The translations under genes and the position numbers were made by a program. Shown in pieces: positions 1 through 47,928 of a stretch of DNA of 64,000 nt. The stretch covers positions 39,151 to 103,150 of the forward strand of contig CAZCYO010000005.1 in the NCBI GenBank assembly GCA_964503265.1, given 5' to 3'. Source of the DNA: an uncultured Gammaproteobacteria bacterium. GTDB lineage: Bacteria; Patescibacteriota; Microgenomatia; Levybacterales; UBA12049. The notes beneath the pieces are model-generated. The model ran no database searches. It saw only the letters and a list, made by a program, of their open reading frames with translations, and had not been told where the DNA came from. Each line of letters starts with the position of its first letter. Positions within the stretch are counted from its first letter, which is position 1.

Positions 1-1757
1 TTATGACTCGCGTTATATGTCATATACAGATAATTTGTCTGTGCGGGAAACTCACCAGCCAACGTGTCGATTTGCATAATTCCCGGATATATTCCGAATT
101 TTCCCCGAAGCGTGCGTATTTCAAGCCCAGTTCTCCCTATTAATTTTCCGATTCGCTTGTCTGAGAAACCAAGTTGTTTGAGACGAAGAAGTTGCCCCTC
201 CTGCCAAAAACTGTCATCCTGAACTTGTTTCAGGATCTTTTTATTTTTCTTTTGAGATGCTGAACTAAATTCAGCATGACTATTTTTTAGTTTTTCTTCT
301 TCCTTCACAATATTCTCCACTCGATACAAAAACCATGGATCAATCCCTGTGAGCTTGTGGAGTTCTGCCACGTTCATCCCCTTTTGAAATGCTTTCGCTA
401 TGGCAAACATCCGCTGTGGAGTGGGATGAGTAAGCAGATCTTTAAGATCTCGCCCCTGTAGCTTTCCCCTCGTGAATAATTCATCTGAAACAGCCCCTTC
501 AAAGTCTAAGTCAAGCATACGAATCGCTTTCTGATATGCCTCTTCAAATGTTCTCCCAATTCCCATCACTTCTCCAACCGACTTCATGCTGCTTCCAATC
601 GTGTCCACAGCATTTTTAAATTTGTCCATATCCCACCGTGGAATCTTCACCGTGACGTAATCAAGTGCGGGTTCGAAACAAAATTGTGTTTTCTTCGTTA
701 CTTTATTCGTTAACTCAGTTAAATTCTTACCCAGTGCGAGTTTCGCAGCCACGTAGGCAAGCGGATAGCCCGTGGCTTTACTCGCCAAGGCTGATGAACG
801 TGAAAGCCGAGCGTTTACCTCAATGACGTAGTAATCCAAAGGAGCTTTCCCCTCGCCCTTTGGGAGAGGGTCGGGGTGAGGGTTGAGTGCATACTGAATA
901 TTACATTCCCCGATAATACCGAGACTTCGAACTACTTTTAACGTAATTGAGCGTAACTCGTGGTATTCAAAATTTGTGAGGGTTTGACTTGGAGCAATGA
1001 CGATCGACTCTCCTGTATGAATTCCCAGCGGATCCATATTTTCCATATTACAGACAGTAATACAGTTATCGTCCGCGTCACGCACAACTTCATACTCAAT
1101 TTCTTTATAGTGATGAAGATATTTCTCAACTAACACCTGTGTGACGAAAGAAAATGCATGTGTGATAAGTTCGTGTAATTCTTTTGCATTTCGCGCAACT
1201 CCCGATCCTTGGCCACCAAGTGCAAATCCGGCTCGAACCATCACAGGAAATCCAATTTCCTGTGCAATCTGTTCTGCTTGCCTGACTGTTTTAGCAGCTT
1301 TACTCGGAGGTGTAGACACATCAAGCTTTCGTAAATGATGAGCAAATGAACGGCGGTCTTCAGTGAGTAGTACAGCTGACATAGGAGTACCCAGTATCGT
1401 GACGTTATGTTTTTCTAATATTTTTTTCTTATAGAGTTCAATACCACAATTTAAGGCTGTTTGGCCTCCAAAGGAGAGAGCGATGGCATCTGGTTTTTCC
1501 TTTTCAATCACTCGCTCGACAAAATACGGAGTCACTGGCAAGAAATACACACGATCTGCCATCTGCTTTGAGGTTTGGATCGTTGCGATATTCGGATTGA
1601 TTAGAACCGTTTCTGTGCCTTCTTCTTTAAACGCCTTAATTGCCTGAGATCCTGAATAGTCAAACTCTCCAGCCTCCCCGATTTTGAGAGCACCACTTCC
1701 GAGTATTAGTATCTTTCTATATTCTTGTTTACTGCTCTGTTTTTGTTGCTCTTTCAT
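1..1757 (-). CDS. carB: carbamoyl-phosphate synthase large subunit (N-terminal ~585 aa; the gene continues beyond the window start)
   Basis: My own translation of the minus strand from the ATG at 1757-1755 gives [42 protein letters not shown]..., with the ATP-grasp and CPSase L-chain motifs ([23 protein letters not shown]). It is absent from the ORF track because there is no in-window stop codon. Confidence 0.9.
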   Translation of the reverse strand, partial: [585 protein letters not shown]

Positions 1758-1769
1758 ATGAATCAAGAA

Positions 1770-2159
1770 TTATGAATCATGAATTAAGGTTTTTGATTTT
1801 TTAATTAACCCATTGAGTAACTTGTTTACGACAATAGTCTTTTCAGCACTTTCATTAAATGCTTGCTTTGCAATATAGCCAAGGTCTCTAGCGATAAGAA
1901 GTTGGTTTTGTACTTCTGTTATGGAACCGAGTGACATCGCGTAAAATTGTGCTTTCTCTTTATAGGAATTTCTACTAAATCCTTCTGCAATGTTGGAAGT
2001 CACCGATACTATTGCACGTCTGATTTGATTAGTCAGCCCAAACATCTCTTCTTTAGGGAAATCCTGAGTTAGTTTATAAACTAACAACACTAATTCATGT
2101 GCTTCTCTCCATGCGTTTAGATCAGTAAAGGATTTTATTTTTCGTGATTCTTGATTCAT
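1770..2159 (-). CDS. four-helix-bundle protein (TIGR02436 / '23S rRNA intervening-sequence protein' family)
   Basis: 129 aa with the characteristic TNQIRRAxVSVxSNIAEGxSR...KEKAQFYAMSLGSITEVQNQLLIARDLGYI signature. Its ATG overlaps the carA TGA (ATGA). Confidence 0.8.
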   Translation of the reverse strand: MNQESRKIKSFTDLNAWREAHELVLLVYKLTQDFPKEEMFGLTNQIRRAIVSVTSNIAEGFSRNSYKEKAQFYAMSLGSITEVQNQLLIARDLGYIAKQAFNESAEKTIVVNKLLNGLIKKSKTLIHDS

Positions 2160-3217
2160 GATTCTTGATTCATCCTCTCTAAGAAATAATCAAATATCCA
2201 CTCTGCATCTGTCGGTCCTGGTGTTGCCTCTGGATGGAACTGAACAGACATAATTGGTTTCGTCTTATGGATAATCCCTTCATTTGTACCATCATTTGCA
2301 TTCGTAAACCAGGGATTAAACCCATCTGGGATACGATTAACAGCAAACCCGTGGTTTTGCGTCGTGATATAACACCGCTTCGTTCCTTCCATAGTACACG
2401 GCTGATTCTGGCTTCGGTGACCATAAGGGAGTTTTTTCGTATCTCCTCCTGCTGCAAGTGAGAGAATTTGATGCCCTAAACAAATGCCCAGAATTGGAAT
2501 ATTTTTTGTAAGGAGTTTTTTTACGTGTAGTATCGTTTCTTTTACTAATTTAGGATCTCCAGGTCCATTTGAAATAAGCACGCCATCAAATTTCTCTTTA
2601 AGAGAAAGTGGATCCATATCCCAAGGAATCGTAATTACTCGGTACCCACGTTCAAGAAGTGCCCGCTCAATATTTCTCTTCGCACCACAATCGACAAGCA
2701 CAATTGTCTTTTTTTTCTTTTTTTTAGTCGGTTCTTGTATTATCACTTTTTTCGTAGAGACTTGAGCGACAAGATTATCAGTATTGGGATCATACCAGGG
2801 TATATCATTTCCACATATAATTTTGCCAAGGAGCGCTCCTTGTTCTCTAATTCGTTGGGTGAGTGCACGAGTGTCTTTAATCTGAAGCAAAGGAACACCT
2901 TCGTCTTTAAACCACTGTGCGAGGGTTTGTTTACTTTGAAAGTGAGATGGCGTATCGATGTACTCACTGACAATCAGCCCTGATACCATGAGATGATCTG
3001 CTTCCCATAACGTTTTATCTGGCACGCCATAATTTCCAATCAGTGGATAGGTAAGGACTAACATTTGCCCTTTATAGGATGGGTCAGTTAAACTTTCTGG
3101 ATATCCCATCATGCCTGTTGAGAACACTACTTCCCCAGCTACTGATGTGTCAGCTCCAAAACTAGTTCCTTCTATTGTTGTTTTATCGTTAAGTACTAGT
3201 GTGGCAGTTTTTTGCAT
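2156..3217 (-). CDS. carA: carbamoyl-phosphate synthase small subunit (glutamine amidotransferase)
   Basis: 353 aa with a CPSase small-chain N-domain and a class-I GATase domain (GICLGHQILSLAAGG catalytic Cys motif; FHPEATPGP). Confidence 0.9.
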   Translation of the reverse strand: MQKTATLVLNDKTTIEGTSFGADTSVAGEVVFSTGMMGYPESLTDPSYKGQMLVLTYPLIGNYGVPDKTLWEADHLMVSGLIVSEYIDTPSHFQSKQTLAQWFKDEGVPLLQIKDTRALTQRIREQGALLGKIICGNDIPWYDPNTDNLVAQVSTKKVIIQEPTKKKKKKTIVLVDCGAKRNIERALLERGYRVITIPWDMDPLSLKEKFDGVLISNGPGDPKLVKETILHVKKLLTKNIPILGICLGHQILSLAAGGDTKKLPYGHRSQNQPCTMEGTKRCYITTQNHGFAVNRIPDGFNPWFTNANDGTNEGIIHKTKPIMSVQFHPEATPGPTDAEWIFDYFLERMNQES

Positions 3218-13262: not shown

Positions 13263-13952
13263 ATGGAATTAGTGGATTTTATCCTACACTTCGATGAGCA
13301 CCTGGTCAACATTATTAACTCCTTAGGCTCTGTTTCCTATATAATTCTTTTTTTTATTGTTTTCGCTGAAACAGGACTCGTTGTCACACCATTTCTCCCC
13401 GGAGATTCTCTTCTATTTGCTGTAGGCGCAGTCTCCACAAGTACGAATCTTAATTTTTGGATTGCCTATGTTGTGTTATTACTCGCTGCAATACTCGGTG
13501 ATACGGTTAACTATTGGATCGGACATTTTATTGGCCCCCGTGTCTTTGCGAAAGGGGATTCAAAGATTTTTCGCAAAGAGTATTTAGAAAAAACAGCTGC
13601 TTTTTATGATAAATATGGAGGAAAGACCATTATCCTTGCTCGGTTTGTGCCAATTGTTCGGACCTTTGCTCCATTTGTGGCTGGGGTCGGAAGAATGAAA
13701 TATCGTACCTTTATTACCTACAATATCGTCGGGGGGGTTATCTGGGTCACATCACTTATGGTACTTGGTCGTTTATTTGGTAGTATTCCAGTTGTTGAGA
13801 AGAACTTTGAATATGTCGTAATTGCTATCGTTCTTTTTTCACTTTTGCCTATGGTGTATGAATATATTAGCCACAAGAGAAGCACAAAGAGCAGTAAAAA
13901 GACCACCCAGCTTGATTATCAGGCTGTTAAAGAATCAGTTAAAAAAGAGTAA
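13263..13952 (+). CDS. DedA/SNARE-associated family membrane protein
   Basis: 229 aa; ETGLVVTPFLPGDSLLFAVGA DedA signature; multi-TM. Confidence 0.8.
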   Translation: MELVDFILHFDEHLVNIINSLGSVSYIILFFIVFAETGLVVTPFLPGDSLLFAVGAVSTSTNLNFWIAYVVLLLAAILGDTVNYWIGHFIGPRVFAKGDSKIFRKEYLEKTAAFYDKYGGKTIILARFVPIVRTFAPFVAGVGRMKYRTFITYNIVGGVIWVTSLMVLGRLFGSIPVVEKNFEYVVIAIVLFSLLPMVYEYISHKRSTKSSKKTTQLDYQAVKESVKKE

Positions 13953-29540: not shown

Positions 29541-31940
29541 CTAAGATTGCTGGGGAGTCGTCGGTGGGAGTGGATTTGTCACAGGAATTGTTCCCGTTTG
29601 AGGCTGTGGTGTCGGAGTCATAGTCATAGTTGTTGTTGGTATTTGTGTTGGTTGCACGGTTGGCGTTTGTTGTGGCGCTGTAGGTGTCATAACAGGAGGA
29701 GCACTCGGTTCCTCAACGGTAACCATAATTGGTGCCGTTGGTGCCGTTGGTGCCGTTGGTGCTGCTGTCGGTAGTGGCATAACAGGGGTAACAACTGGAA
29801 CTGGTTGTGGCGTGACTTGCGATAACGGAGGAAGTGGCTGTGCTCCAGGAACAGGGCCGCTATTTAGTGAGGATTGTGTCGGCTGAAATTCTGTCGGTTG
29901 GGTCGGCATAGAGACAGGAGGAGGTGCCTGTTGTATGACTGGTGGTTGTTCGCTTAAAGTAGGTGTTGGCATAACAACTGGCGGTGGTGTTTGCTCAATC
30001 GGTACTGGTGGTGTCTCTGGAACTTGCTCAACAGGCTCAGGGAGTGGTTGTTCAAGTGGTGTATCAAGCGCTGTCTGATCGTCAAGTGTCTGTTGTGCAA
30101 GCTGTTGCTGTTTCATGACCTCCTCTGGATTTGAAGTAATAAGATCGTGCTCAAATGGTGCGCCAAGTACTTTCATCGCGACGTGATTTTGTCCGGCGAA
30201 AAATAATCCTTCTCCGATATCTGCAGTTAATAATAACTCTTTTTCACCTTCAGATAGATAGAAAATTTCTGTCGCCAAATCGACTTCGGCAGTACCTTGT
30301 TTAAGGAGAATCTGAATAGACGAGTTGGTAAGAACTGCTTTACCGTATTCTGTTTTCAAGAAGTCCTCTACGTCTTGTGTGGCGGTTGTTAATCCCAGAT
30401 AGTATTTTCGCGCACGCTTTGCGATTGAATAGACGAATGAGGCTGAATCTTCGTATTTCATCATATACCACGCTTCATCTAAGATCAGGAGTCTTTTTTT
30501 AAGTGATTTTTTAACTTTTGTCCACACGAAATCCAGAATAATATGCATCGCAATTGGACGCAGTTCATCTTCTAGGTTTTTAATATCAAAGATCGTCAGT
30601 GGATTTGTCAGATCAAAATTAGATTTCTGGTTAAAAATACCTGCAGCAGATCCTTTAATGAATTTCTCAAGTCGAAACGCCATCTCTCTTGCATTCGCAT
30701 CCTCATAGCCCATGAGTGTTTTGTATAAATCTTCCATAATTGGTGCTTCTTTGTTCTGGGTAGATGGATCAGGTGTAATGCCTTTTTGACCGTATGTTTC
30801 AATAAGTGCTTTATCTAAAAGCGCGTCATGTTCTGCATCGAGTGTTCCAAGCACGATCTTAAGGAGCCCGTGAAGAGAAAGAATCTTGAGGCCAAGCTCA
30901 TTTTCTCCTGCTTCAAACAGGTTTGCCAAATCAAACGGATTAATTTTAACGGGAGCATTATTTGAGAATTCGACGACTTCACCACCAAGTGTTTGAGTAA
31001 GTGTTCCGTATTCTCCCTCGGGATCTACGACGATTACTTCTGTTCCAAGCATGAATTGCCGCATAATCTCAAGTTTGATCAAATACGATTTCCCTGATCC
31101 TGATTTTCCTAGAACCATCTCGTTCGCATTTTCAAGTGAGAACCTGTCGAAGATAATGAGGGAACCGTTTTGCTGGTTCATCCCATACATGATGCCTTTG
31201 TTCTGTGTAAGCATAGCGCTCGTAAAAGGGAAAGTTGATGCAAGTGATGTCGTATCCATGTTACGAGTGATAAATAGTCGATCACTTGCTATTGGAAGTG
31301 TGGATTTAAATCCTTCTTCCATTTGAAGCGTTGCTGGTTTCGCTGAGAGGAGAAGAGACGCCAGGGTTGTTTGTAGCTGTTTTGATGCTGAGAGCAGATC
31401 TCCAAGCGAATCGCTTGTAATGGTTAGATAAAAAGAAAATTGGAAGAATCTCTCTATGCCTTTTGCTAGTTCTTCCTGAAGTCCAAGTGCATCTTCAAGT
31501 GCTGCTTCAATTTTCGGGTCAACTGGTTTTCCGTTCTCAGCATCTGACGCAATTGTCGCTTCCATTTCCCCGATTTTTCGTCGTAAGTCATTTAATACAT
31601 CATTTGAAGACGTTGGGTAAATAAACATGGAAATATCAATGGTGTGATCGTAATCGACGACTGGTTGTAGCCAACTTGGAGAGACATAACGTGGGTATCC
31701 GACGACAAAGAGGGTGGAGTAATACTTTTCCCCGACACGTACATATTTGAAATCAACTTCAACAGAAGATGGAGAGATAAGATCAACCATCGACACCGTT
31801 CCCTTTTCTAGATTTTGAAGTGCTTTAGATGTAGGTGATGGTGGTGGCGTTTTCCCTTTTGCTGCTGGTTGAGGTGCTTGTGCACCAGCTTGTGTCTGGA
31901 CGGGTGGTTGCGCCACCTTTTTATTTCCAAAAAGTCCCAT
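29541..31940 (-). CDS. VirB4/TraC/CagE-family T4SS ATPase (ATPase body, with a Pro/Thr/Gln-rich ~190-aa C-terminal tail)
   Basis: 799 aa; Walker A GKSGSGKS and Walker B LLILDEAW. The region after the Pro-rich N-terminus (VDFKYVRVGEKYYSTLFVVGYPRYVSPSWL) matches the VirB4 central domain. Confidence 0.85.
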   Translation of the reverse strand: MGLFGNKKVAQPPVQTQAGAQAPQPAAKGKTPPPSPTSKALQNLEKGTVSMVDLISPSSVEVDFKYVRVGEKYYSTLFVVGYPRYVSPSWLQPVVDYDHTIDISMFIYPTSSNDVLNDLRRKIGEMEATIASDAENGKPVDPKIEAALEDALGLQEELAKGIERFFQFSFYLTITSDSLGDLLSASKQLQTTLASLLLSAKPATLQMEEGFKSTLPIASDRLFITRNMDTTSLASTFPFTSAMLTQNKGIMYGMNQQNGSLIIFDRFSLENANEMVLGKSGSGKSYLIKLEIMRQFMLGTEVIVVDPEGEYGTLTQTLGGEVVEFSNNAPVKINPFDLANLFEAGENELGLKILSLHGLLKIVLGTLDAEHDALLDKALIETYGQKGITPDPSTQNKEAPIMEDLYKTLMGYEDANAREMAFRLEKFIKGSAAGIFNQKSNFDLTNPLTIFDIKNLEDELRPIAMHIILDFVWTKVKKSLKKRLLILDEAWYMMKYEDSASFVYSIAKRARKYYLGLTTATQDVEDFLKTEYGKAVLTNSSIQILLKQGTAEVDLATEIFYLSEGEKELLLTADIGEGLFFAGQNHVAMKVLGAPFEHDLITSNPEEVMKQQQLAQQTLDDQTALDTPLEQPLPEPVEQVPETPPVPIEQTPPPVVMPTPTLSEQPPVIQQAPPPVSMPTQPTEFQPTQSSLNSGPVPGAQPLPPLSQVTPQPVPVVTPVMPLPTAAPTAPTAPTAPIMVTVEEPSAPPVMTPTAPQQTPTVQPTQIPTTTMTMTPTPQPQTGTIPVTNPLPPTTPQQS

Positions 31941-40308: not shown

Positions 40309-42063
40309 TTATGCTTTTTCTATTCGGTTGTACGTAAATGGAATAGTTGTCATCAGTTTGCGCTCTATCTTTCCGTCTTTATCTTTGGTGCTTTCAAAGA
40401 AGGACATTCTTAGAGAACCATCTTCCATTTTTGTGGCAATTCCCCAGTAAAACCTCTGACCTACCACATAATCATCTAAGATTTTTTTCTCTGCCTGCAA
40501 ATCAGTCTCTGATGGTGTGTCTATGTTTTTCCCATGAAGGCCTAATTGATGAATATGTACCTGTATAAGATGATTTCTTCCGTCTCCAGGCGATGGTTCC
40601 TTTCCATATGCTTCTTTTAACCCAGTTTTTTCTTCAAGTTCTGTAAAGCGCTTTGTGTGCTTTGGCATATCGGGTATAGTACTATCATTAATTGCTTTAC
40701 TATAGTCATTATCTGGAATAGCTACTGCTCCTAGCATGGCATAATTCTCTCCCTGTTTTGTCGCAGTCCCACGTATCGAAAATCCTAGCTCTTTATTAAC
40801 TTCATTTGCTCGCGCGGCAATTTGATCAATCATTTGAAGGAGTGCCGGGGTGAGTATGAGAGCGGATGCTTTTTTTGTGAGCTCTTTACTCCGTACGTCA
40901 GCTAGTTGTGTTTTCAAGTATGCTAATTCTTTTTGGAAATCTTCTTTTAGCGATATTCCTTCAGTTCTGAAGTCTCCAGTAGTTAGATCTAATAATTGAT
41001 CCACGACCTCTTTATAGGTTAATCTTTTACCTTCAGGCGTTTTTATTTGTGAAGGAAGGTTGGCATATTGATCAATGTCTTTTTGGGATACCGGAATAAC
41101 GCTATTTTTCTCTTCTGTTTTTTCCGGTGGAGCAGGGGTATTTTCTGTCACAGGAGAGATATCAAAAAGGAGCTTGAGTAGTGGTTTTTCCTTGTCGTTT
41201 GGGTTATTGACTCTTGTTGTAGTATCCCCGGATTTCTTTTCGTTAGCTTTTCTAATGAGTTCATCTTTTAGCTCTTTATTATTACTACTAATGAGATCTG
41301 CTTCTATAAGAGAGGGGATAAGTTTGCTCGTGTTGGCCCCAAAAACATTAGAAAACCAGGAAATAATCTCCATATCTTTTTGTAATGCGGCATAATCTAC
41401 TTTCTCATTTTCATCGACATATTCAGTCGCGACATATAAATAAAATTTTTTAATATCAGAGCTCTTATTAGGTCCAACAAAATATGTATCATAGAAATGT
41501 AGTAGTTTATCTGTCGTGATCTCTCCCTCAATCCCCATTTTTTTATAAACGTTCTTTACTTCTTCACGTTTATTTTCGGCTGTCACTTCAAGTTTCTTTA
41601 TAAGCGATGCTTTTACTTGTTCAGCCCACGCTGCTTTTTGTTTGTCAAATTCCTTTTCTGGCTGTTTTTTCCAATAATCAGTACGCTCTGTATCAGAAAG
41701 TTTTTTTACTTTATTTACCGTATCATCTGATAGGGTGAGTTGTTCATTTTTAATTTCTCCAATATCAGTTTTCTGTGGGTTAAGTGCATCACTACCCAGA
41801 AGTAATCGGGTTGTTAAGGCGACACGTTCTGATGAAACGCGTTCTATTTCCTTTGGTTTAACTGTCTCTGCTTGGGATGGGGAAGCTCCTTCGTGTTCTG
41901 ACATAGATTTAGTGTAATCAGTATAAAAAATCTTTGCAAATTTTGCTTTATAGGAACTTAACAAAATGATTGTCATATTGCTCAATTGTTTTGTTGCTGG
42001 AACAATCGTTAGCAATGAAGCAATGAAGCAATGAAGCAATGAAGCAATGAAGCAATGAAGCAA
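40309..42063 (-). CDS. hypothetical protein (584 aa as called). The N-terminus encoded by the 8-bp repeat is probably 5' leader, with the true start likely downstream (MTIIL... or MSEHEG...)
   Basis: Long ORF with a K/E-rich soluble body; the first 16 codons (HCFIASLL x2) are an artefact of translating the GCAATGAA repeats. Confidence 0.45.
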   Translation of the reverse strand: MLHCFIASLLHCFIASLLTIVPATKQLSNMTIILLSSYKAKFAKIFYTDYTKSMSEHEGASPSQAETVKPKEIERVSSERVALTTRLLLGSDALNPQKTDIGEIKNEQLTLSDDTVNKVKKLSDTERTDYWKKQPEKEFDKQKAAWAEQVKASLIKKLEVTAENKREEVKNVYKKMGIEGEITTDKLLHFYDTYFVGPNKSSDIKKFYLYVATEYVDENEKVDYAALQKDMEIISWFSNVFGANTSKLIPSLIEADLISSNNKELKDELIRKANEKKSGDTTTRVNNPNDKEKPLLKLLFDISPVTENTPAPPEKTEEKNSVIPVSQKDIDQYANLPSQIKTPEGKRLTYKEVVDQLLDLTTGDFRTEGISLKEDFQKELAYLKTQLADVRSKELTKKASALILTPALLQMIDQIAARANEVNKELGFSIRGTATKQGENYAMLGAVAIPDNDYSKAINDSTIPDMPKHTKRFTELEEKTGLKEAYGKEPSPGDGRNHLIQVHIHQLGLHGKNIDTPSETDLQAEKKILDDYVVGQRFYWGIATKMEDGSLRMSFFESTKDKDGKIERKLMTTIPFTYNRIEKA

Positions 42064-42067
42064 TGTA
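42012..42067. repeat. simple-sequence repeat: 8-bp unit GCAATGAA x6 perfect + 1 degenerate copy
   Basis: Seen directly (agcaatgaagcaatgaag...caatgtaac). It lies in the divergent region between gene 40309-42063 (-) and gene 42084-42773 (+). Confidence 0.9.
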
Positions 42068-42083
42068 ACAATCTAACATTTGG

Positions 42084-42773
42084 TTGTATACTATTTCTAT
42101 GCTCTTTGTGGGATTATTCTTTCTTTTTCTTATTCTCTTATTTATCTCATCATATTTACTTACTCAATCTCTTTCAACTCTTTTTTATCGGATCACGAGA
42201 AGTGAGAGATGGACTATTACTATTCTGGCCCTTCTTTTTTTTCCAGGTGTGCTCATTCACGAGTTGGCACACTTCTTAATGGCAACGATATTATTTGTTC
42301 CGACAGGGGAGATAGAGTTTATCCCACAGATTATGGAAGACAGGGTGAAATTAGGGAGTGTTCAGATCGGGCAGACAGATCCATTCAGACGGGCGATTAT
42401 CGGGATTGCACCAGTTATCGTTGGGGCGAGTGTATTAATTGGGGTATTATATTACTTTACAACTTCGACCTTCGCATTTACTACACCACTAGATATTCTT
42501 AAAGTACTAGGGATACTCTATATAGTGTTTGAAATTAGTAATACGATGTTTTCGAGTAAGCGTGATGTTGAAGGTACGCTTGAACTACTTGTAGCCATAG
42601 TGGTTATCGGAGGGGTACTCTACTTTGCTGGAGTACGACTCCCTGAATCGTTTATCGAAGTGATTACTTCAGACAAAGTATTATCATTCTTTGAACAAAC
42701 AAGTAAACTTCTCATTCTCCCGCTGCTTCTTAACTATTCCTTGTGGGCAGTAAGTAAACTCCTCGGAAAATAA
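42084..42773 (+). CDS. polytopic membrane protein with an HExxH motif (putative membrane zinc metalloprotease)
   Basis: 229 aa; about 5 TM segments; LIHELAHFLMA motif at the end of TM2. Confidence 0.4.
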   Translation: MYTISMLFVGLFFLFLILLFISSYLLTQSLSTLFYRITRSERWTITILALLFFPGVLIHELAHFLMATILFVPTGEIEFIPQIMEDRVKLGSVQIGQTDPFRRAIIGIAPVIVGASVLIGVLYYFTTSTFAFTTPLDILKVLGILYIVFEISNTMFSSKRDVEGTLELLVAIVVIGGVLYFAGVRLPESFIEVITSDKVLSFFEQTSKLLILPLLLNYSLWAVSKLLGK

Positions 42774-46071: not shown

Positions 46072-47409
46072 ATGAAAGAGAAACATTTCGATTCGTTATA
46101 TCCGGCTGATTCGTATTCTGATGAAATTGCCAAGATTGGCGTATCTATTAAAGAAGGGAACTCTAGTCAGCTCATCGGACTTCCTGGTGTAGGAAGAGCA
46201 AATGTATTAAGTCTGCTTGCACATAACAAGTCTGTTCGAGAGAAACATTTTGGAGAGAATCAGAAATGGCAACATTTCGTACTCGTTAATTTCTCTGAAG
46301 TAAAAGATCGAACACTTTTTGATGTCACTAAGTTTCTTTTTCTCTCACTCATGGAATCATTAAAAGAACGTTCGATGACTGAAGAGTATGAAATGGTTCA
46401 GGCTGAATTTAAAGAAGCACTCTCATTTAACGATGAATTAGTACTTTTTCAAGCCTTGAAATCAACTATCGACTATTTGTGCCTAGAGAAAGAACTAACT
46501 GTCATTTTTCTTTTTGACAGGTTTGCAGAATATTTACAGCAATTAACTTCAACGTTTTTTGCTAACCTTCGTGTGCTTCGAAATCATGCCAAATATCGTT
46601 TTAGTATCGTTTTTTCTTTAGAACGACCCCTTGAAGATATCATTGAGCCGTCGCTGCTATCAGATTTTTATGAATTTGTGGGTGGACACTATGTGTTTAT
46701 GCGCATATATGATCCTGTAAGCGCGGCATTTAGGCTCTCATATCTAGAGAAAGTTACCGGGCGAAAGCTGGATAACGCATGTATGGATGAAATACACCGA
46801 TTAACAGGTGGATTGTGGAGGCTTACGAAGATTTGCGCTGAAGCGATGCTTGCTGAGGAGAAACATGCAGATGAGCTGTTACCGTTTCTTCTTTCACGCA
46901 AAACAGTAAAAGAAGCATTATGTAAAATCTGGGATTCATTTTCACCTGATGAACAAACCGCACTGCGGACCTATATGGATGGAAAGATAGATCCAGATGT
47001 AGAGATGCAAGAATACCTTTCAAAGATTGGAATTATTAAAGATAACGTCCTTCAGATACCATTTCTTAAAGAGGTAATTGGACAAAAAGAAGTAACTACA
47101 CAACTGGACGAACATATTATTTATGACATAGATACAAATATGATCATGAAAGGGGATGTGGAGATTTCAGATAGATTAACTGCTGCCGAATACCGCTTAT
47201 TACTTTTCTGCCTCCAGAACACCGAGCGAATTCTTGAGCGTGATGAAATTATTACAGCAGTTTGGAGAGATAGTGCGACGACTGCAGGGGTTACCGATCA
47301 AGCGCTTGACCAGCTCATTTTCCGGGTTAGAAAAAAGATTGAAGCAGATCCAAATAACCCCCTCCATCTCCAGACGGTCAAGGGCAGAGGGTTTAAATTC
47401 AGTTCCTGA
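46072..47409 (+). CDS. transcriptional regulator: N-terminal ATPase-like domain (degenerate P-loop) + C-terminal OmpR/PhoB-type winged-helix DNA-binding domain
   Basis: 445 aa; LIGLPGVGRANVLSLL P-loop-like segment; C-terminus LTAAEYRLLLFCLQNTERILERDEIITAVW...LIFRVRKKIE...LQTVKGRGFKF matches the trans_reg_C winged helix. Confidence 0.55.
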   Translation: MKEKHFDSLYPADSYSDEIAKIGVSIKEGNSSQLIGLPGVGRANVLSLLAHNKSVREKHFGENQKWQHFVLVNFSEVKDRTLFDVTKFLFLSLMESLKERSMTEEYEMVQAEFKEALSFNDELVLFQALKSTIDYLCLEKELTVIFLFDRFAEYLQQLTSTFFANLRVLRNHAKYRFSIVFSLERPLEDIIEPSLLSDFYEFVGGHYVFMRIYDPVSAAFRLSYLEKVTGRKLDNACMDEIHRLTGGLWRLTKICAEAMLAEEKHADELLPFLLSRKTVKEALCKIWDSFSPDEQTALRTYMDGKIDPDVEMQEYLSKIGIIKDNVLQIPFLKEVIGQKEVTTQLDEHIIYDIDTNMIMKGDVEISDRLTAAEYRLLLFCLQNTERILERDEIITAVWRDSATTAGVTDQALDQLIFRVRKKIEADPNNPLHLQTVKGRGFKFSS

Positions 47410-47433
47410 TAAAGTCAAAAATCAAAAGGTAAA

Positions 47434-47811
47434 ATGCAAAATCACAGTTCAAAATTCAAAAGTGATTTAAAAGTGAGATGCTATCACTTTAGTTTAGAGC
47501 TTATTACTGTTATTGACTCCTTACCTAAAGAGCGAAGTTGCTGGATCATTGGAGACCAGGTATTAAGAAGTGGGACAAGTATTGGCGCGAATCTTACAGA
47601 AGCAACAGCCTCAAGCTCCAAACTAGAATTTAAGAAATTTCATGAGATAGCTTTGAAAAGTGCAAACGAAACAAAATACTGGCTTAATTTACTCTTAGAT
47701 AGCGGTAAAGGAGAAAAATACCGTCTTGAACAGCTTTTACAAGAAGTTACGGAGTTATCAAATATGATAGCGGCAGGAATTATGAAAATGAAAGGTAAAA
47801 CGACCTTTTAA
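47434..47811 (+). CDS. four-helix-bundle protein (TIGR02436 family), second copy
   Basis: 125 aa; GDQVLRSGTSIGANLTEA...ALKSANETKYWLNLL signature; flanked by imperfect inverted repeats (47413-47430 / 47812-47833). Confidence 0.75.
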   Translation: MQNHSSKFKSDLKVRCYHFSLELITVIDSLPKERSCWIIGDQVLRSGTSIGANLTEATASSSKLEFKKFHEIALKSANETKYWLNLLLDSGKGEKYRLEQLLQEVTELSNMIAAGIMKMKGKTTF

Positions 47812-47928
47812 CTTTTGATTTGTGTTTTTGACTTGATACTTTTCATTTTTTACTTCTCCCTCACACTTATCATTGTTTTATAAGTATTTTATCAAGAAGA
47901 ATGTTAGCTATGAAGATATACTCTCCTC

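Follow-up and report, generated by a model that had tools for sequence, protein, structure and literature searches.

We analyzed a perfect tandem repeat with an 8-bp unit that lies in a 64,000-nt stretch of DNA (contig CAZCYO010000005.1, positions 39,151 to 103,150 of the forward strand; the window) from an ultrasmall bacterium that belongs to Patescibacteria, also called the candidate phyla radiation (CPR). The tract sits inside the 194-bp spacer of a divergent gene pair, within a locus that resembles a type IV secretion system (T4SS). We think it fairly probable that this tract is a young expansion, made by slippage, of one arm of a quasi-palindrome located between two leaderless promoters, and that it leaves transcription unchanged or alters it slightly, in a graded way. 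It is most likely not an on/off switch and is probably an ordinary, neutral microsatellite. The evidence comes from the reading frames around the tract, the start codon of the minus-strand gene, the absence of the repeat from orthologous spacers and the pattern of leaderless promoters.

A perfect octanucleotide array between two divergent genes

Tandem Repeats Finder placed the tract at 42011-42065, with a period of 8, 6.9 copies over 55 bp, 100% matches and a score of 110, the highest in the window. Direct reading with a regular-expression count resolved it into a mismatch-free run of six units at 42012-42059, preceded by A and followed by GCAATG, after which decayed units extend up to 42083. 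A preliminary description of this DNA had reported six to seven copies of an 8-bp unit at 42012-42067, between divergent genes of a T4SS-like locus, and our analysis bears this out. The T4SS-like character of the locus is seen in matches to the Pfam families T4SS_pilin (in three scanned genes), PrgI, TraG P-loop (a VirB4-like ATPase), TrbL/VirB6 and DUF5663. The description was also correct that the unit is not a multiple of 3, which makes the tract prone to slippage in principle, and that the minus strand reads HCFIASLL across it. The features of the spacer and its flanks are as follows.

40309..41904, minus strand: gene for a 531-aa protein, with an N-terminal domain family of 211 homologues
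41911..41939, minus strand: predicted minus promoter, -35 TTGCAA at 41934-41939, 17 nt, -10 TACACT at 41911-41916, 6 nt, ATG 41904 (alignment block with the orthologous locus L005; leaderless rule)
41948..42079, minus strand: dead-end open reading frame (ORF) of 43 aa, MLDCYIASLLHCFIASLL..., starting at ATG 42079 and running through the tract
41968..41998, no strand: degenerate inverted arm GATTGTCATATTGCTCAATTGTTTTGTTGCT, with ATTG at 8-bp intervals, 77% complementary over 31 nt to 42043-42073 (repeat-pair search)
41999..42010, no strand: linker of 12 nt that joins the arms, GGAACAATCGTT; a (AACAATGG)n array in L026, from a related Patescibacteria genome, ends in the same 12-mer
42011..42065, no strand: perfect octanucleotide array, A + (GCAATGAA)x6 + GCAATG (Tandem Repeats Finder, regular expression, shuffle test)
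42060..42083, no strand: decayed 8-bp units GCAATGTA, ACAATCTA and ACATTTGG, overlapping the -35-like hexamer of the plus promoter; copies of direct repeat D1 have 93% and 80% identity
42065..42092, plus strand: predicted plus promoter, weak -35-like GTAACA at 42065-42070, 16 nt, -10 TATACT at 42087-42092, 6 nt, ATG 42099 (consensus scan; leaderless rule; orthologous loci L080 and L081)
42099..42773, plus strand: gene for a 224-aa membrane protein with an invariant HExxH, conserved across Patescibacteria

The tract is exceptional within the window. A two-unit probe allowing up to 2 mismatches gave 6 matches, all of them within the tract, where shuffled sequences led us to expect 0.20 and never reached 6; outside the tract, the octamer was not enriched (5 near-matches against 6.7 expected). 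At thresholds of 3 or more copies and 20 bp or more, the only perfect repeats were the octamer tract and an in-frame 9-bp repeat (TTGGTGCCG, 3.8 perfect copies at 29729-29762) near the 3' end of the VirB4-like ATPase gene (29541..31940, minus strand).

Judged by its units, the tract appears to be the expanded arm of an 8-bp-periodic quasi-palindrome of CAATG/CATTG units in mid-spacer. The inverted arms are able to pair, as in palindromic elements of the repetitive extragenic palindromic (REP), miniature inverted-repeat transposable element (MITE) or Rickettsia palindromic element (RPE) kind, though a DNA hairpin or cruciform of the arms was no more stable than shuffled sequences (z = -0.69).

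Start codon of the minus-strand gene

A long minus-strand ORF opens at TTG 42063, and in public resources (ENA and Logan; P0121, 555 aa) the minus-strand gene is called from Met30 of this ORF (41976), within the spacer. The L005 orthologue starts at a Met that aligns to Met54 of the long ORF (ATG 41904), with stops in the same frame 4 and 7 codons before it, and the L080 and L081 orthologues start at the equivalent point. Furthermore, among the best 150 of the 211 homologues detected by phmmer, nearly all N-terminal matches begin at the equivalent of Met54 (for example, query 9-516 against target 6-512, and 28-275 against 28-275). Because the N-termini of these orthologues and homologues align together at Met54, both the long ORF and the 555-aa call are too long. 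The gene starts at ATG 41904, 24 codons downstream of the public call, giving a protein of 531 aa.

The tract lies 107 bp upstream of this ATG. It is outside the translated region and not downstream of a functional start, which is where repeats that cause translational phase variation are found. The preliminary description had proposed that gain or loss of a unit would shift the reading frame of the minus-strand gene from an upstream ATG, and we reject this route: the ATG in question, at 42079, is out of frame with the gene at the present six units, comes into frame at 4, 7 or 10 units only, and has neither a Shine-Dalgarno sequence nor a TAnnnT at 6-nt distance.

Predicted leaderless promoters and the position of the tract

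Counting over all 43 substantial genes of the window, we found 14 in which the end of a TAnnnT stands exactly 6 nt ahead of the start codon, as against 0.67 expected from random positions (examples are the genes at 13263, 14985, 26482, 43785, 44238, 46072, 47929 and 55215). TTGCAA or TTGACA often stands 17-18 nt upstream of the TAnnnT, and a Shine-Dalgarno-like 4-mer was present in only 3 of the 43 genes. The TAnnnT-N6-ATG rule and the scarcity of Shine-Dalgarno sequences together indicate that the organism makes mostly leaderless mRNAs. The start sites are predicted, with strong statistical support, and the organism appears to be predominantly leaderless genome-wide. Both genes that flank the tract obey the rule.

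The tract spans positions of about -34 to -88 relative to the plus-strand gene and about -107 to -161 relative to the minus-strand gene. Its last base, 42065, is the first base of the GTAACA hexamer in the plus promoter, the -35 of the minus-strand gene is 72 bp away, and the two predicted -35 hexamers are 125 bp apart. The tract is therefore outside both predicted -35/-10 spacers, the location of core-promoter-spacer switches of the hif, porA and opc type. It does not lie between a predicted transcription start and an ATG, where it could modulate a 5' leader. It does lie directly upstream of a predicted -35, which is the position of rheostats built on simple sequence repeats (SSRs) of the nadA, sabA and hmw type. 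A consensus scan found no promoter-like hexamer pair created by the tract itself.

Since both genes are predicted to be leaderless, the tract would stand upstream of both -35 boxes with no leader length to change. The altered 5' leader spacing envisaged in the preliminary description thus falls away, each gene having TAnnnT exactly 6 nt before its ATG. The altered promoter spacing that was also envisaged survives in part: the -35/-10 distances are beyond the reach of the tract, and a change in unit number could alter only promoter-distal distance and helical phase. One 8-bp unit corresponds to about three quarters of a helical turn (~274 degrees).

We propose the following sequence of events. 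Replication slippage would have expanded one arm of the CAATG/CATTG quasi-palindrome in a lineage-specific manner, leaving a tract that is untranslated, outside any 5' leader and upstream of each -35 box. If a unit were gained or lost, the -35 to -35 distance and the rotational setting of the upstream DNA would then shift, and the outcome would be no change or a small graded change in transcription.

The repeat is absent from orthologous spacers

The orthologous spacers are shorter, at 122 bp in L005, 109 bp in L006, 94 bp in L080 and 79 bp in L081 compared with 194 bp in the window, and none of these four contains a tandem repeat. L005, L080 and L081 keep the divergent gene pair; L006 has a different left neighbour. 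Alignment with L005 revealed a conserved minus-promoter block and a tract region that could not be aligned, and in L080 and L081 a TAnnnT stands 6 or 7 nt before the ATG on both sides of the spacer. These short, repeat-free spacers indicate that the 194-bp spacer is a recent, lineage-specific expansion of a compact back-to-back promoter pair. We recovered no relative closer than 79% identity with an intact spacer; the near relatives of the 224-aa protein at 78-79% identity (P0003, P0004 and P0006) lack their N-termini because the contigs end there, and have no spacer.

The plus-gene promoters of L005 (1845-1852) and L081 (about 2462-2470) have a -35 of the form ATTGTT(C/T), the core of which is shared with the octamer unit CATTGYTT. 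At the equivalent -35 position in the window (42064-42072) stands GTAACAATC, the reverse complement of GATTGTTAC. This resemblance suggests that the array may have been seeded from, or may have remodelled, the ancestral -35 region of the plus-strand gene.

Copy number in other assemblies

Just one further assembly runs across the tract: ENA contig ERZ4216102, which matches the window base for base there and in the flanks and likewise has six units. The tract is therefore no product of a single assembly. In SRR12487046, the Logan k=31 contig ends 30 nt into the tract; this is the graph break expected at k=31 and carries no information on length heterogeneity. We saw no length variation, in a comparison with one other spanning assembly, possibly from the same sample, which is too few data to refute variation. 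A search of JGI metagenomes for close strains with a 20-mer of the right flank returned only L011, an unrelated high-GC chance match, and viral contigs gave one unrelated match to the repeat and zero to the flank. Exact-protein look-ups with the pilin, P0001 and P0121 led to the same two contigs or to nothing. The clusters of these proteins have a single member, so the collections searched hold no strain series.

Octamer arrays in other genomes

Arrays of at least 3 units were found at 67 loci (L012-L078) in GTDB species representatives from many phyla. Composites of (CATTGCTT)n, a spacer and an inverted CAATG-type array occur in L025, L026, L040 (Pseudomonadales) and L043 (Ignavibacterium). 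Of 65 arrays, 19 have an inverted partner no more than 130 bp away, scored at 18 or more matches out of 24, and 6 have a direct partner; with shuffled flanks, 18/24 was reached in only 2 of the 65 loci, taking the best of 20 shuffles for each. A crude ORF-based census placed 50 of 52 arrays in intergenic regions, 36 of them between tandem, 7 between convergent and 7 between divergent genes. Convergent and divergent spacers are thus used equally often, which speaks against this class of array being a device specific to promoters.

Two counterparts are in the Patescibacteria metagenome-assembled genome (MAG) JTS-AC14 (JBGSIU01), which shares synteny with 3.6-5.9 kb of the window. Its 31-nt array has an end phase identical to that of the window and is present in two copies within 16 kb, each with an inverted CAATG-type octamer array (L026 1560-1660 and L025 345-445, both of the form (CATTGCTT)x3.9 - 26-29 nt - inverted array). 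Both composites are inside ORFs that are kept open, one for a prepilin peptidase (Pfam A24) and the other for a cytidylyltransferase-like protein, and the insert encodes IASLLHCFIA...MEQ(L/W)NN. This layout is like that of a palindromic element inserted in frame. The prepilin peptidase gene also carries (GAATTTAC)x3.9 and (TCTAAAT)x4.4.

The element is present once in the 64-kb window, twice in 16 kb of JTS-AC14 and at 23 loci in one Roseiflexaceae MAG (JANLSE01). In the latter, at least 23 octamer-array loci fall within L018-L077, one of them with 12 copies (L074 5495-5590). These arrays usually have other 7-8 bp repeats beside them and, at a distance of 35-45 nt, an inverted (GCATTGAA/GCATTGGA)n array; they appear to form a multi-copy family of repeat-armed palindromes. 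At three Roseiflexaceae loci read by eye, the element directly adjoins a TATAAT-like box and the neighbouring gene's ribosome-binding site.

Array lengths peak sharply at 31 bp (12 of 67 loci), and 18 arrays, including the 55 bp of the window, have lengths of 7 modulo 8. We considered a k-mer artefact for the 31-bp peak; the phase distribution across loci was broad. The arrays of the window, of L025 and of L026 also have end phases in common, AGCAATGA...AGCAATG. As a conjecture, a 7-nt direct-repeat seed at 8-nt spacing would explain the lengths and the end phases. The octamer composites may go back to common descent or to convergent slippage.

Competing explanations

Several points weigh against a young expansion of little or no consequence. 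A perfect 55-bp tract with a non-triplet unit is the exact type of substrate found in known contingency loci. It adjoins a weak -35 (GTAACA) in the plus promoter, where upstream DNA can matter, as in sabA (PMC4081817). The locus encodes host-interaction machinery, and one of the flanking genes evolves very fast (31% identity to its L005 orthologue, against 79% for its neighbour). A useless 100-bp insertion would be expected to be purged from a streamlined genome. Moreover, the promoters and start sites are predicted, and the comparison of unit number with one other assembly, possibly from the same sample, is too small to show invariance either.

Such points would fit a promoter-proximal contingency locus, a rheostat in which slippage alters rotational or linear alignment and so gives graded, heritable and reversible expression of the M50-like gene, the 531-aa gene or both. 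We regard this, the main rival, as a serious possibility, albeit an unlikely one. The tract ends on the first base of the weak -35-like hexamer, comprises about seven (6.9) perfect copies of a non-triplet unit and lies in a T4SS locus. There are precedents for repeats upstream of the -35 in the nadA TAAA tract (PMC2791445) and the sabA T-tract (PMC4081817), and for an octanucleotide in a promoter region in hmw1A/hmw2A of Haemophilus influenzae biogroup aegyptius (PMC3309571). However, no length variation was seen and the second assembly is identical, the tract is missing from all four orthologous spacers, flanking operator-like motifs are not enriched, and the copy number is well under the 12-15 units of the hmw octamer tracts. 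In addition, like arrays elsewhere are found equally in convergent spacers and also inside ORFs. A more ambitious version would make the tract a member of a cross-phylum family of inverted CAATG-octamer arrays, which behave like palindromic insertions and settle in any spacer or in frame in Patescibacteria genes; one arm, expanded beside a weak -35, would then be the first repeat-based expression rheostat in a Patescibacterium T4SS locus. We consider this combination quite unlikely.

Control by a DNA-binding protein is improbable. Here a regulator bound to the direct repeats or to the quasi-palindrome would govern both promoters, and a candidate is a protein of 445 aa that has a winged-helix Trans_reg_C domain at its C-terminus (46072-47409) and is encoded 4 kb from the tract in the same locus. 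The inverted partner arm speaks for this reading, and a placement between divergent promoters is typical of operators. Direct-repeat binders of the OmpR/PhoB type use 10-11 bp spacing, and the 8-bp period is out of phase with this; regulator-binding arrays and iterons would have a 10-11 or 21-22 bp phase and a recurring motif, whereas the octamer is not enriched off the tract and TAACA direct repeats, taken as a candidate operator, are not enriched either (2 against 1.29 expected). The array is also missing from orthologous spacers that retain the same genes, and the perfect identity of its units indicates recent slippage and not conserved sites.

A translational on/off switch can be given very little credence. 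It would start at ATG 42079 and read through the tract, so that 4, 7 or 10 units fuse a hydrophobic HCFIASLL extension to the 531-aa protein and the present six units leave it off. One extra unit would bring this ATG into frame, no stop interrupts the frame over the 53 codons before Met54, and a promoter-like TTGAAA-17-TATGAT (10 of 12 matches) is present at 42177-42149 on the minus strand. Nevertheless, the frame is open largely because the repeat is stop-free, and related composites are likewise open inside real genes. The orthologues and about 200 homologues start at Met54, L005 has a stop 4 codons upstream, and a conserved predicted leaderless promoter directly before Met54 would let the protein be made regardless; ATG 42079, as noted above, lacks both initiation signals. 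Least probable of all, to the point of being negligible, is that the tract or its copy number was made by an assembler. The break of the Logan contig 30 nt into the tract is typical of repeat graph cycles, yet the independent ENA assembly reads through with the identical six units and flanks, and 55 bp is shorter than a standard read.

Neighbouring genes and other observations

The two flanking genes have diverged at different rates: identity to the L005 orthologue is 31% for the 531-aa protein and 79% for the adjacent 224-aa protein. By this comparison the divergence of the 531-aa protein appears unusually fast. Pfam and PDB sequence searches with it gave no match, and a word-indexed search returned only the protein itself, the 211 homologues having come from an exhaustive phmmer search. 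Its C-terminal region contains an HxH...SxxD stretch, VHIHQLGLHGKNIDTPSETD, kept as HTHQ...TPSPED in L005, that by eye resembles a JAMM/MPN metalloprotease motif. The 224-aa protein is a distant relative of the M50/M50B (site-2-protease-like) family, and homologues of this plus-strand neighbour are named "Patescibacteria group bacterium". Two more small pilin-like genes are labelled T4SS_pilin in a contig of the same strain.

Genes of the 23S_rRNA_IVP type were bracketed by inverted heptamer-repeat arms in all three cases examined (window 1752-2186, window 47411-47829 and L026 804-1290). Arm length and complementarity are 27 nt and 93%, 24 nt and 83%, and 23 nt and 91%, and the heptamer differs each time. 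Assignment to this type was confirmed by Pfam PF05635 for 47434-47811 and made by sequence similarity or by eye for the other two. Together with their arms, these genes look like cassettes and are reminiscent of rRNA intervening sequences with flanking stems. Four-helix-bundle genes of the bAvd/IVP type are found among T4SS pilin genes in several lineages (window 47434-47811, L006 5899-6285, L081 3250-3621 and 4899-5273). A diversity-generating retroelement was considered and rejected: a bAvd-like gene is present, but we saw no template/variable repeat pair in 38-56 kb. No reverse transcriptase was seen among the scanned window proteins, in a scan that was not exhaustive.

Implications and comparison with known systems

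Patescibacteria depend on host cells and have few classical regulators. For cultivated Saccharibacteria, a preprint reports T4SS genes as essential for epibiotic growth (bioRxiv 10.1101/2025.01.22.634366). The literature that we searched does not treat phase variation in Patescibacteria, the two terms occurring together in a single paper, on archaeal DNA methylation; microsatellites in promoter regions are known as a kind, and none is known to have been studied in this phylum. If a length-variable repeat were proven to tune the promoters of the T4SS locus, it would be the first for Patescibacteria and a cheap regulatory principle. The practical value of the tract is that it is a possible strain marker, that it flags a mis-start by gene callers (the 555-aa call should be 531 aa) and that it revealed a strongly leaderless promoter architecture.

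In the hmw genes of Haemophilus, repeat number grades expression. The hmw1A/hmw2A repeats consist of the 7-bp unit ATCTTTC in nontypeable H. influenzae and of the octanucleotide GCATCATC, in 12-15 copies, in biogroup aegyptius (PMC3309571). Like them, the window tract is a perfect tandem array of a non-triplet 7-8 bp unit, upstream of a gene of a host-interaction locus and outside the coding sequence. Unlike the hmw tracts, which have 12-15 or more copies and vary between strains, it has 6.9 copies with no variation seen, and it stands upstream of the -35 of genes predicted to be leaderless. The TAAA repeat of Neisseria meningitidis nadA (PMC2791445) is likewise upstream of the core promoter and is proposed to set the spacing of distal elements and not of -35 and -10. 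It differs in its 4-bp unit and in having mapped NadR operators as well as an IHF site on its flanks, whereas no flanking operators are detectable in the window. The T-tract rheostat of Helicobacter pylori sabA (PMC4081817) has been proposed for bacteria with few trans-acting regulators, which is true also of Patescibacteria. That tract, a homopolymer, gains or loses 1 bp at a time, and its length heterogeneity in vivo has been demonstrated, while the window tract would change in 8-bp steps.

In H. influenzae, van Ham and colleagues reportedly described, in 1993, TA repeats between the -35 and -10 of the overlapping divergent promoters of hifA and hifB that give on/off switching. The likeness is that of a repeat in the divergent spacer of a surface-organelle locus; the difference is that the window tract is outside both predicted core promoters. 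Rickettsia palindromic elements and REP/MITE-like elements are intergenic palindromic repeats that can also sit in frame within genes. The octamer composites share with them inverted arms, an occurrence in any type of intergenic spacer and, in two JTS-AC14 genes, related composites that preserve the frame. On the other hand, the arms in the window are short tandem octamer arrays and not unique sequence, the composite is single-copy in 64 kb, and no target duplication or transposase was identified. Bacterial repeats with units of 6-9 nt are rarely reported (PMC4692102). The hypervariable gene with in-frame 9-mer repeats in a Gracilibacterium (PMC6851277) is a further CPR case of a tandem repeat that fragments assemblies, with population variation shown by reads. 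That repeat is coding, long and built on a triplet-multiple unit, whereas the window tract is non-coding, has an 8-bp unit and measures 55 bp.

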